Under the pieces are notes generated by a model. It had not been told where the DNA came from and made no database searches. It saw only the letters and a program-made list of their open reading frames with translations. Below, piece by piece: positions 31,641-33,893 of a stretch of 64,000 nucleotides of DNA. Origin of the DNA: Octopus vulgaris (Eukaryota); assembly GCA_951406725.2 (NCBI GenBank), contig OX597820.1, positions 76,322,001 through 76,386,000 of the forward strand. Reading direction: 5' to 3'. A program made the translations under genes and the position numbers. Numbering within the stretch: the first letter of the stretch is position 1; every line of letters begins with the position of its first letter.

Positions 31641-31709
31641 ATTTGCTGCCTTTCTTAAAACTACATTATTTACATTTGACGGATATTTGTCCTCATCTTG
31701 TTTGTTGAT

Positions 31710-31755
31710 AACACAACATTTCGGTTGATATACCCTCCAGCTTTCATCAGGTATC
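31710..31755 (-). ncRNA. Minimal type-I hammerhead (C3-G8), partly decayed
   Basis: GATAC-CTGATGA-A-AGCTG(gagggtatat)CAACC-GAAATGTT-GTGTT; stem II has two mismatches. Confidence 0.6.
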
Positions 31756-31899
31756 TCGGGGAAATTTCAAACCTGGGTTCTCATTCCTAAGGTATTTTTC
31801 GATCTTCTTCTTCTTCTTCTTCTTCTTCTTCTTCTTCTTCTTCTTATTATTATTATTATTATTATTATTATTATTATTATTATTATTATTATTATTATT

Positions 31900-32185
31900 C
31901 AGTAGTTTTATTTTTATAGCGTGCTTTCACTTCACTACCGAGCGCAGCTCTGTGTGCCTTGGGTATGTGCTGTGATTTGTTGTGATTCACTGATGGTTAT
32001 TGTATGGAAAGTGTTCTGCGTAGGATGTGTGCAGTGCCTAGTAGTGCAATTTTCTGTATGTTATATGTGTTTGTAAGTCCTGGTGTTTTTGTTATGTATT
32101 TGTCTGAATATTTTTTATCATGCCTAATGCACCTACTATGATAGGAATTGTTTCTGTTTTCAGATTCCACATTCTAGTTACCTCT
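31900..32185 (-). mobile_element. R4/Dong-clade 3' fragment
   Basis: IEVTRMWNLKTETIPIIVGALGMI..IQKIALLGTAHILRRTLSIQ*; (ATT)n on both sides. Confidence 0.85.
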
Positions 32186-32281
32186 ATTATTATTATTATT
32201 ATTATTATTATTATTATTATTATTTATTATTATTATTATTATTATTATTATTATTATTATTATTATTATTATTATTATTAT

Positions 32282-32791
32282 CTCTTTATCACAGGTGTGT
32301 TGGAGCACCCGGAGCCTTGCATGCGTAGCGGGCTTACTACTTGCAGCCTACGGTACCATACTATTCGTTCTTTTCACTTATCTAATACTTTCCTGATTAT
32401 TCTGTCTGTACAGAGGAGGCAAACCTTTTGTAAAAGTTCTACTGGATGCTCTATTCCAATTTCCTTTATATTCCTCTTGATGCTTTCTGATACTGTTCCT
32501 ATGCACCCAACAATAATTGGCACTATCTTCACCTTCATTTTCCATAACCAGGCTATTTCGTTCTTAAGAGGGTTGTATCTATCTATCTTTCCGTTTTCCT
32601 TCTTGACTATTCGTGGGTCAAAGGGGCATTCAACACCTACTATATATCATACGTGGTGCACCGTATCCACTACAACTAGGTCTGGTCTGTTATGCTCTAG
32701 CACGTAATATATTTGGATTGAGAAATCCCTGAAGATTTTACTAATGTTCAACTCTTTATTTGCGGTTTGTGCTCATATCACGTCCTGCCTC
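32282..32791 (-). mobile_element. R4/Dong-clade 3' fragment
   Basis: DFSIQ..LEHNRPDLVVVD..ECPFD..KIDRYNPLKNEIAWLWKMKVKIVPIIVGCIG..LLQKVCLL..RIIRKVL; PD..D restriction-like endonuclease motif; (ATT)n on both sides. Confidence 0.85.
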
Positions 32792-32954
32792 TATTATTAT
32801 TATTATTATTATTATTATTATTATTATTATTATTATTATTATCATCATCATCATCATCATCATCATCATCATCATCATCATCATTATTATTATTATTATT
32901 ATTATTATTATTATTATTATTATTATTATTATTATTATTATTATTATTATTATT

Positions 32955-33455
32955 CTATGCTTGACTATTGATTTACATTTGCACAAGCTGGCTCCAAGTC
33001 TCACCCAGAGACCTCAAGAGACAACACGTTGGAAGTTCGTGTTGCTGTTATACCTAAGGGGCCATATATTTGGTTTTGTATTTAGTGTTGTACTAGTGAA
33101 TGTCTAAAAAACCATACGAAAATTATGTTTGATTTAAAACTTGAGATTAAATAGAAAGCATTTTGCGTAGGATATGAGCAGTTCCCATGAGCACTATCTT
33201 TTGAATTCCTGTCATTTTGGGGTTTCCTGGTATCTGAGTTAGGTAGTAATCAGCCCCTTTTCCTATCATCCCCAGGGCACCTATGACAACAGGTATTGTT
33301 TTAGTCTTCATGTTCCACATTTTGCTGATTTCTATTTCAAGATCTTTATATTTGCTCAGTTTCTGGTAGGTCTTGACAGATACGTTTATATCGATTGGGA
33401 CAGTCATAGCAATGAGGAGGCATGTTTTTTGTCTGAAGTCTTTTACTGTGATGTC
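32955..33455 (-). mobile_element. R4/Dong-clade 3' fragment
   Basis: ORF 33147..33407, KLSKYKDLEIEISKMW..PVVIGALG..IQKIVLMGTAHILRK; (ATT)n on both sides. Confidence 0.9.
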
Positions 33456-33613
33456 TTATTATTATTATTATTATTATTATTATTATTATTATTGTTATTA
33501 TTATTATTATTATTATTATTATTATTATTATTATTATTATTATTATTATTATTATTCAGGTAACAGCCTGGAATCGAAGCCCACGTTCATAACCACTACG
33601 CCATATGCCGGTA

Positions 33614-33893
33614 GTGATGAAGACTGGAGGGTGTATCAGTCGAAGCGTTGCATTAACAGCAAACAAGATGAGGGTTGTTGCTGATCGGAAGAGGTGACCG
33701 TCTGGAAGGGATTTTCTCGTCGCTCCTTTCTGCCAACAGGTAGCCCCACGCCAACCGGTGCGTGATCGACTCTACACGGCCGGCGTGTCCGCCGACTTTC
33801 CGCTGCCGCCCCACTCTCCCCAAAATGAGGACAAATAGCCGTCAAATGTAAATAATGTATGTAATTCCTCATCTCTTGAATATAGAACTGTAC
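33614..33893 (+). mobile_element. Inverted truncated copy of the hammerhead element, with a GC-rich insert
   Basis: TGATGA-A-GACTG(gagggtgtat)CAGTC-GAAGCGTT, then ...AAACAAGATGAGG [insert] ATGAGGACAAATAGCCGTCAAATGTAAAT; reverse complement of 31661-31750. Confidence 0.7.

Follow-up and report, generated by a model that had tools for sequence, protein, structure and literature searches.

Evidence that a hammerhead-bearing octopus repeat is a Penelope pseudo-LTR with a tRNA-like head, interrupted by a Dong/R4-type stack

A hammerhead-bearing repeat in the genome of Octopus vulgaris (2.8 Gb) is almost certainly the decayed pseudo-LTR (pLTR) of an autonomous Penelope-clade element, and not a free-standing hybrid of SINE and retrozyme. 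It lies in a window of 64,000 nucleotides, G000:C7:76322001-76386000, which is the whole stretch of DNA analysed here. SINEs are usually paired with LINEs. The parent of this repeat appears to be an autonomous Penelope element with a promoter of SINE type in its terminal repeat, so that parent and short derivative share one sequence. For the locus as a whole, the explanation that we consider probable is the insertion of a pLTR with a likely Pol III head, later interrupted by a stack of Dong/R4-type fragments that arrived in a single event.

An earlier interpretation of this DNA, made from its letters alone (the sequence-only reading), had described a head, an AAT-type linker and a body on one strand together with an inverted, truncated body. 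All of these are present, with the head at 33556-33612 and the body at 31662-31803 on the minus strand and the inverted body from 33614 on the plus strand. Read along the minus strand, the order is head (33612-33556), (AAT)n, three Dong/R4 fragments (33456-32955, 32792-32282 and 32185-31900) separated from one another by AAT-type tracts, an (AAT)(AAG) tract, and the body (31803-31662). The partial inverted body adjoins the head, is split by a 147-bp insert that the sequence-only reading had missed, and ends at 33892 with a 30-nt tail. The features of the locus are as follows.

31649..31662, plus strand: probable target-site duplication, left copy; 10 of 11 core letters equal those of 33895-33905
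31662..31803, minus strand: pLTR body, the arm without tail; about 125 nt of the Penelope ORF start plus 19 nt upstream
31710..31755, minus strand: minimal type-I hammerhead motif over ORF codons; stem II broken twice, C15.2 changed
31804..31899, minus strand: (AAT)18(AAG)14; made up of the Dong stack's tail and the 3' portion of the pLTR linker
31900..32185, minus strand: Dong/R4-type fragment D3; of the youngest family, whose copies lie about 1% from the majority
31900..33456, minus strand: compound stack D1-(AAT/GAT)-D2-(AAT)-D3; twin at G000:C15:23492570-23494207
32282..32792, minus strand: Dong/R4-type fragment D2; C-terminus of a restriction-like endonuclease (RLE) with RPD motif, and 3' UTR
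32955..33456, minus strand: Dong/R4-type fragment D1; 5'-truncated end of the stack
33457..33555, minus strand: (AAT)n, 5' part of the pLTR linker
33556..33612, minus strand: tRNA-like pLTR head; with an intact A box (33603-33593), a deletion of 21 nt and a damaged B box
33614..33673, plus strand: inverted 5'-truncated arm, part 1; starts inside the hammerhead core, without C3 and the 5' strand of stem I
33674..33820, strand not given: later insert of an unrelated repeat family; possible 6-bp duplication
33821..33892, plus strand: inverted arm, part 2; bears the Penelope tail of about 30 nt
33893..33905, plus strand: probable target-site duplication, right copy

The body arm of the window, with the ORF ATG at 31784, is about 5% diverged and carries an early stop codon. 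The insert at 33674-33820 gave 42 genome matches and 94 candidates; it is a GC-rich fragment of a repeat family of about 100 candidates, some copies of which are clustered on C10 and C22. Further body fragments had also been proposed in the window. Matches occur at 7967-8027 and 13304-13340, and the second is indeed joined to (AAT)n, but it lacks a head; beyond it lies another SINE.

Most copies of the family are short and start at the 5' edge of the head; their arms lie head to head, with a single tail, and the target is duplicated over 10-14 bp. Among 49 inverted pairs, the tail was found on one arm only in 42, and flank duplications scored above the 95th percentile of mismatched pairs in 32. 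The window insertion likewise has a one-sided tail and a 10/11 duplication, so 31662-33892 is probably one insertion; the duplication lends modest support, its score being reached by 3.2% of mismatched flank pairs (p ~0.03). The inverted arms, one-sided tail and duplications match the description of PLEs given by Craig et al., and the published definition of PLEs includes a truncated inverted arm and a 30-40 nt tail at one end. We dropped the idea that the tail always sits on the first-made arm, as inspection by eye gave mixed results. The short copies offer a tractable template on which the formation of inverted arms and tail can be studied.

The pLTR of an autonomous Penelope element

The sequence-only reading had proposed to abandon its own view if head and body proved unlinked in other copies. 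The linkage held, the body lying downstream in 25 of 29 head-selected loci by BLAST. When the selected loci were pooled, 77 of 98 head 3' ends had a body start downstream, which is far above chance, in loci that were chosen by similarity and not at random. A 400-kb random sample held 3 insertions, which translates into roughly 2x10^4 insertions genome-wide with a wide error (about 4x10^3 to 6x10^4). Self or duplicate rows (L001, L031, L101) were excluded from counts, as were L113 and L119 from the majority, inverted-pair and 5'-end counts. These last two and L112, all on C31, are near-identical Penelope insertions with the same breakpoints and are likely segmental duplicates. The sequencing runs of four organisms contain about half of the element's sampled words; depth over head and body was several-fold above that over the ORF and UTR in 4 of 4 runs (24 listed), a comparison that refers to contigs only and measures neither copy number nor expression.

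The identity of the unit emerged from loci selected by the ORF. In 26 of 30 (three of them near-duplicates on C31), an RT/GIY-YIG ORF is followed by a short UTR and then by the head, and in 21 of these 26 the body comes next; at L038 the GIY-YIG-type C-terminus lies immediately upstream of the head. The order of the unit is an ORF that encodes RT with GIY-YIG at its C-terminus, a UTR of about 40 nt, the tRNA-like head, (AAT)n, the ORF start with the hammerhead, and the tail. Among 10 N-terminal copies, 6 have a body or tail that leads in frame into the ORF; the frame shares 47-53% identity with the N-terminus of a PLE protein, P0003, and the translation of the window body matches the same N-terminus at 47% over 30 aa (E 2.6e-5). 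The hammerhead body is therefore the first 125-150 nt or so of the Penelope ORF.

Assignment of the ORF rests on several features. RVT_1 was recognised by Pfam (E 1.4e-10) and a long natural copy aligns across residues 90-846 of P0003. The GIY-YIG-type C-terminus was read from translations, Pfam GIY-YIG reaching only E 0.23, and that on the homolog P0003. The alignment with P0003 shows a DKG motif and an RT-EN linker devoid of a Zn finger, features described as separating such elements from Naiad, Neptune and Nematis, and the ORF start is duplicated at the 3' end, as expected of a pLTR. Every feature tested thus agrees with PLE membership, and placement in the EN+ Penelope/Poseidon clade is by these sequence features. 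A search of the L102 frame returned no Pfam match, and none was found in the PDB for the PLE C-terminus. As a potential partner we had considered a PLE-like RT fragment upstream of L011, which was dropped as belonging to another family; L011:330-1480 and L221:1-640 are fragments resembling other Penelope-like families, distinct from the one described here.

Like the Penelope and Poseidon PLEs (PMC11167929; for D. virilis Penelope, PMC2377424), the octopus element combines an RT with a C-terminal GIY-YIG and has a hammerhead over the ORF start in the pLTR, a 30-nt tail and inverted truncated arms. Unlike them, its pLTR contains a tRNA-like head with A and B boxes and an (AAT)n linker, and most copies start at the head. 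The Penelope promoter has been described as LINE-like and TATA-less (PMC11167929, PMC2377424). In our literature search, which covered openly accessible papers and not Repbase or Dfam, we found no published report of a tRNA promoter in a PLE repeat. Hammerheads go unmentioned in the main text of a recent repeat annotation of O. vulgaris, the supplements of which may hold this Penelope family.

The sequence-only reading had seen in head, linker and body a separate, non-autonomous SINE/retrozyme hybrid that served as a preferred landing pad and was hit three times by Dong. Short copies do dominate the family and its linkers accept inserts. However, the same head-linker-body arrangement ends an autonomous element, and the body is the start of that element's ORF, which makes a separate hybrid very improbable. 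The majority sequence is the same in short copies (48-70) and in long, ORF-linked ones (17-18), and no fixed site tells them apart; differences in frequency between them fall mostly at CpG sites, in a short set that was selected for similarity. A tRNA-derived SINE is expected to be a separate family sharing only the 3' tail with its partner; here the whole unit is contained in the autonomous element. Nor did we see retrozyme-like tandem arrays of direct repeats with hammerheads, the copies L001-L060 being single or in inverted pairs. The layout of the copies is Penelope-like, as the sequence-only reading had noted, but the RT would not be borrowed, as the unit is the autonomous element's own pLTR.

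Having identified the unit as a pLTR, we compared it with other small elements that carry hammerheads. As in the Schistosoma elements Sm-alpha and Sj-alpha (PMC6765202, PMC2770079), where a tRNA-derived Pol III promoter is followed by a hammerhead, the octopus unit has a tRNA-like, likely Pol III head before its hammerhead, and the copies number in the tens of thousands; those elements are described as often tandem, with no autonomous parent named there, whereas the octopus unit belongs to an autonomous PLE and occurs in inverted pairs. Animal non-LTR retrozymes, which have been proposed to derive from the pLTRs of PLEs, resemble it in being non-coding and in their type-I hammerhead, but are defined by tandem arrays (bioRxiv 10.64898/2026.07.22.740005); the words 'tRNA', 'promoter' and 'octopus' are absent from the available text of that preprint. 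The octopus family points to a way, open to test, in which PLE repeats could give rise to elements that join a promoter to a hammerhead, Sm-alpha among them.

The hammerhead motif

Judged by minimal type-I hammerhead features taken from PMC4209133, the family's majority sequence conforms to the Cervera and de la Pena motif, with stem II reading GGCTG/CAGCC. The majority sequence has the core CUGANGA/GAAA/UH, an extra base after A9, G10.1-C11.1, a palindromic 15.2-16.2 and a 5-bp stem I; neither arm in the window retains the full set, and the hammerhead of the window's body arm is likely inactive, judging by these changes. Core, stem II and palindrome are all intact in 9 of 87 copies, and position 7, which is free in the core, varies in 10 of 86. 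Since the motif overlaps codons, coding constrains its letters too.

The stem-II letters quoted in the sequence-only reading (GACTG/CAGTC in one arm and AGCTG/CAACC in the other) are there, and the ancestor that it guessed, GGCTG/CAGCC, is the family majority. Its interpretation of them as compensatory change was not upheld: of 87 other bodies, just 1 has G63A together with C80T, and in the other arm both changes break pairs. Because of this rarity, and because the inverted arm lacks C3, the paired change in that arm is best read as a private pair of mutations due to chance. For each pair of the stem, double changes turned up in 1-2 of the 87 copies, which are subject to decay once inserted.

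Rfam returned no hammerhead or tRNA family for the window, the region or one near-majority copy. Folding of the single strand as monomer or dimer formed stems I and II but no catalytic fold, by a method uninformative on activity. The hammerhead would work, if at all, as a dimer or with the help of protein. It would not be needed for insertion, because copies reach about 80 nt past the cut site. In the Poseidon of Anolis carolinensis, too, where the ORF starts inside the hammerhead and the tail lies inside the ORF, cleavage is described as unneeded for insertion (PMC11167929).

The tRNA-like head and the 5' ends of copies

The head of the pLTR is 74 nt long, with A and B boxes 34 nt apart, an arrangement matched by 3 of 200,000 shuffles. 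Boxes in tRNA spacing are present in the majority head and in 40 of 66 heads, and absent from the window copy. ARAGORN called no tRNA in the head (0 in 20 loci), nor any in the window. The sequence-only reading had credited the locus with its own promoter. For the family this view stands in part, a Pol III-type head being the likely reason for the short copies; the window's own head is likely silent, as far as its letters allow a prediction, because 21 nt are lost and the B box is damaged.

Copies have a discrete 5' end at the head, as SINEs do at their own start. Of the 55 arms that keep the full head, 51 end where the head begins, and the other 4 extend upstream. In body-selected loci (BLAST), the ends of 52 arms fell at the head start in 21 cases, within the head in 12, in the linker in 13, in the body in 6 and upstream in none (L005, in which UTR is visible upstream on inspection, was counted among the in-head ends); in head-selected loci, 30 of 52 arms ended at the head start and 4 upstream. 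ORF-containing copies end anywhere across more than 1.5 kb. An RNA starting 9 nt ahead of the A box, at the A in position -3, would fit the letters upstream of most short arms; the window head, too, begins at this A, the common 5' end of the family. No head was seen in a 5' pLTR among 10 copies viewed with 620-nt flanks.

Such a clustering of ends is expected if the template is a Pol III RNA, which would start about 9 nt before the A box. The short RNA would hold the pLTR signals needed by the element's own RT and endonuclease, and solo pLTRs would for that reason multiply like a SINE. On this sequence evidence, the short copies are probably driven by a Pol III RNA that starts at the head and serves the element's own enzyme as template.

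The main rival to a Pol III start is fold-back at a 5-bp palindrome that flanks the head start. The head might be a passenger, an old tRNA-derived insertion, and the ends might pile up through fold-back or template switching of the RT at the palindrome, or through RNA processing. The palindrome could itself cause such a pile-up, and where short copies show it, what precedes them is its mirror letters (TA in 10 of 13) and not UTR letters. The same mirror letters, however, also result without any UTR template when an arm that begins at -3 is joined to one that begins at -1, and partnerless copies (L042, L046, L049, L055) also begin at -4 to -1. Moreover, an RT engaged on a longer RNA would hardly be stopped by the weak hairpin, and the head lacks an acceptor stem for cutting of the RNase P type. 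We consider a passenger head unlikely, though the most serious of the alternatives. A 5-bp mirror of the head start closes the UTR of ORF-linked copies such as L038 (1493-1504); it could be what remains of an inverted arm from the event in which the head was captured.

Alongside a Pol III origin of the short copies, a bolder reading would have the captured head drive the entire autonomous element in addition to the solo repeats, making the element a Pol III-driven protein-coding retrotransposon. The head is located just upstream of the ORF start, where PLE promoters sit. T runs on the 2.3-kb sense strand include no T5, and T4 occurs 3 times in 30.8 kb of aligned copies, a paucity that is not significant (P 0.09-0.41). 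We regard this reading as quite doubtful; if true, the element would be a living intermediate toward Sm-alpha-type SINEs and retrozymes from Penelope repeats.

By analogy, the closest parallel in design is offered by the TRIMp3 elements Cassandra, Helenus and Ajax, which have a Pol III promoter derived from a small RNA within the terminal repeat (PMC10886601). TRIMp3 elements are of the LTR class and exclusively non-autonomous, and their autonomous partners are expected not to share the Pol III repeat; in the octopus a Pol III-type repeat is kept by the autonomous element (PMC10886601 for TRIMp3).

The Dong/R4 stack

The translations of D1, D2 and D3 are C-termini of restriction-like endonucleases. 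A long copy of the D3 family, L120, matched zf-RVT in Pfam (E 4.7e-6) and, weakly, R2 proteins in the PDB (E 1e-4); two RLE fragments from the window had no Pfam match. The C-terminal Zn knuckle and restriction-like endonuclease of R4/Dong are thus in place, and for the three fragment families the sequence passes from the 3' end straight into an AAT run in 29, 29 and 19 loci out of 30. R4/Dong elements are described as having an RT, a restriction-like endonuclease and, in molluscs, a (TAA)n target, with recent activity in Octopus vulgaris (PMC7998251, PMC13282606). We apply the name Dong on the strength of architecture and target, the homolog matches carrying no clade names. Unlike R4/Dong elements as described, three truncated pieces of different families here likely moved as one compound insert.

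All three fragment searches returned a second locus, G000:C15:23492570-23494207 (L162, L132), so that two copies of the stack were found. The C15 twin has the same order, internal junctions and AAT/GAT spacer, lies inside a long AAT tract, and differs from the window stack at 3, 3 and 1 positions over 503, 511 and 286 nt (99.4-99.7% identical). Of the departures from the family majority, the two have 16 of 296 in common for D1 and 23 of 279 for D2. The C15 flanks are unrelated to those of the window and contain no Penelope sequence, and the D1 of the twin reaches about 105 nt further at the 5' end. Given a near-identical twin in such flanks, we are highly confident that the three Dong pieces came as one pre-built unit and not by three landings, which overturns the picture of three independent insertions drawn in the sequence-only reading. 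The C15 twin is a candidate source or sibling of the window stack; two copies give no direction. More generally, the twin warns that nested repeat stacks are not readable as counts of independent insertions.

Nor did Dong insertions show a preference for Penelope linkers as landing pads. Linkers hold 2-3 of 84 Dong copies (L140, L148, perhaps L180), to be compared with 1 linker among 33 AAT tracts counted in a random sample, both samples being small. The 84 are the 90 loci minus the window and C15 copies; L159 and L160 overlap. Together with the twin stack, these proportions weigh further against the hybrid landing pad discussed above.

The 3' end of D3 likely primed the whole stack by retrotransposition. 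Read-through RNA of an older Dong stack, primed at the young D3 3' end, would enter the linker, which as an (AAT)n tract like any other would explain why the stack landed there. Alternatively, the stack might have been copied at the DNA level, by gene conversion or ectopic repair between AAT tracts. Such tracts bound both copies, and just two copies were found; but the window stack starts about 105 nt inside the D1 of its twin, like a 5' truncation and not at an AAT boundary, no unique flank is common to the two, and their divergence of 0.3-0.6% fits the young D3 family. We hold DNA-level copying to be unlikely and prefer retrotransposition of the stack as one unit.

Other inserts accompany Dong in these tracts. 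In 98 linkers, an element that we call X was seen in 5, and Dong was present in L009, L120, L140 and L148. X, about 550 nt long, non-coding and AAT-targeting (L111:2286-2830, oriented; L007, L022, L050, L058, L086, L232/L234), is the commonest insert of Penelope linkers; it also lies near 28 of 84 Dong copies and is likely a Dong-dependent non-autonomous element. A Dong neighbour was found on the same strand in 29 of the 84 other copies and on the opposite strand in 5. Elsewhere in the window, 37400-38062 (plus strand) is a separate, older Dong copy of the D1 family, 85% identical to the D1 of the stack. Another abundant short repeat family flanks the locus, with head-to-head and tandem copies at 31260-31642 and 16245-16592.
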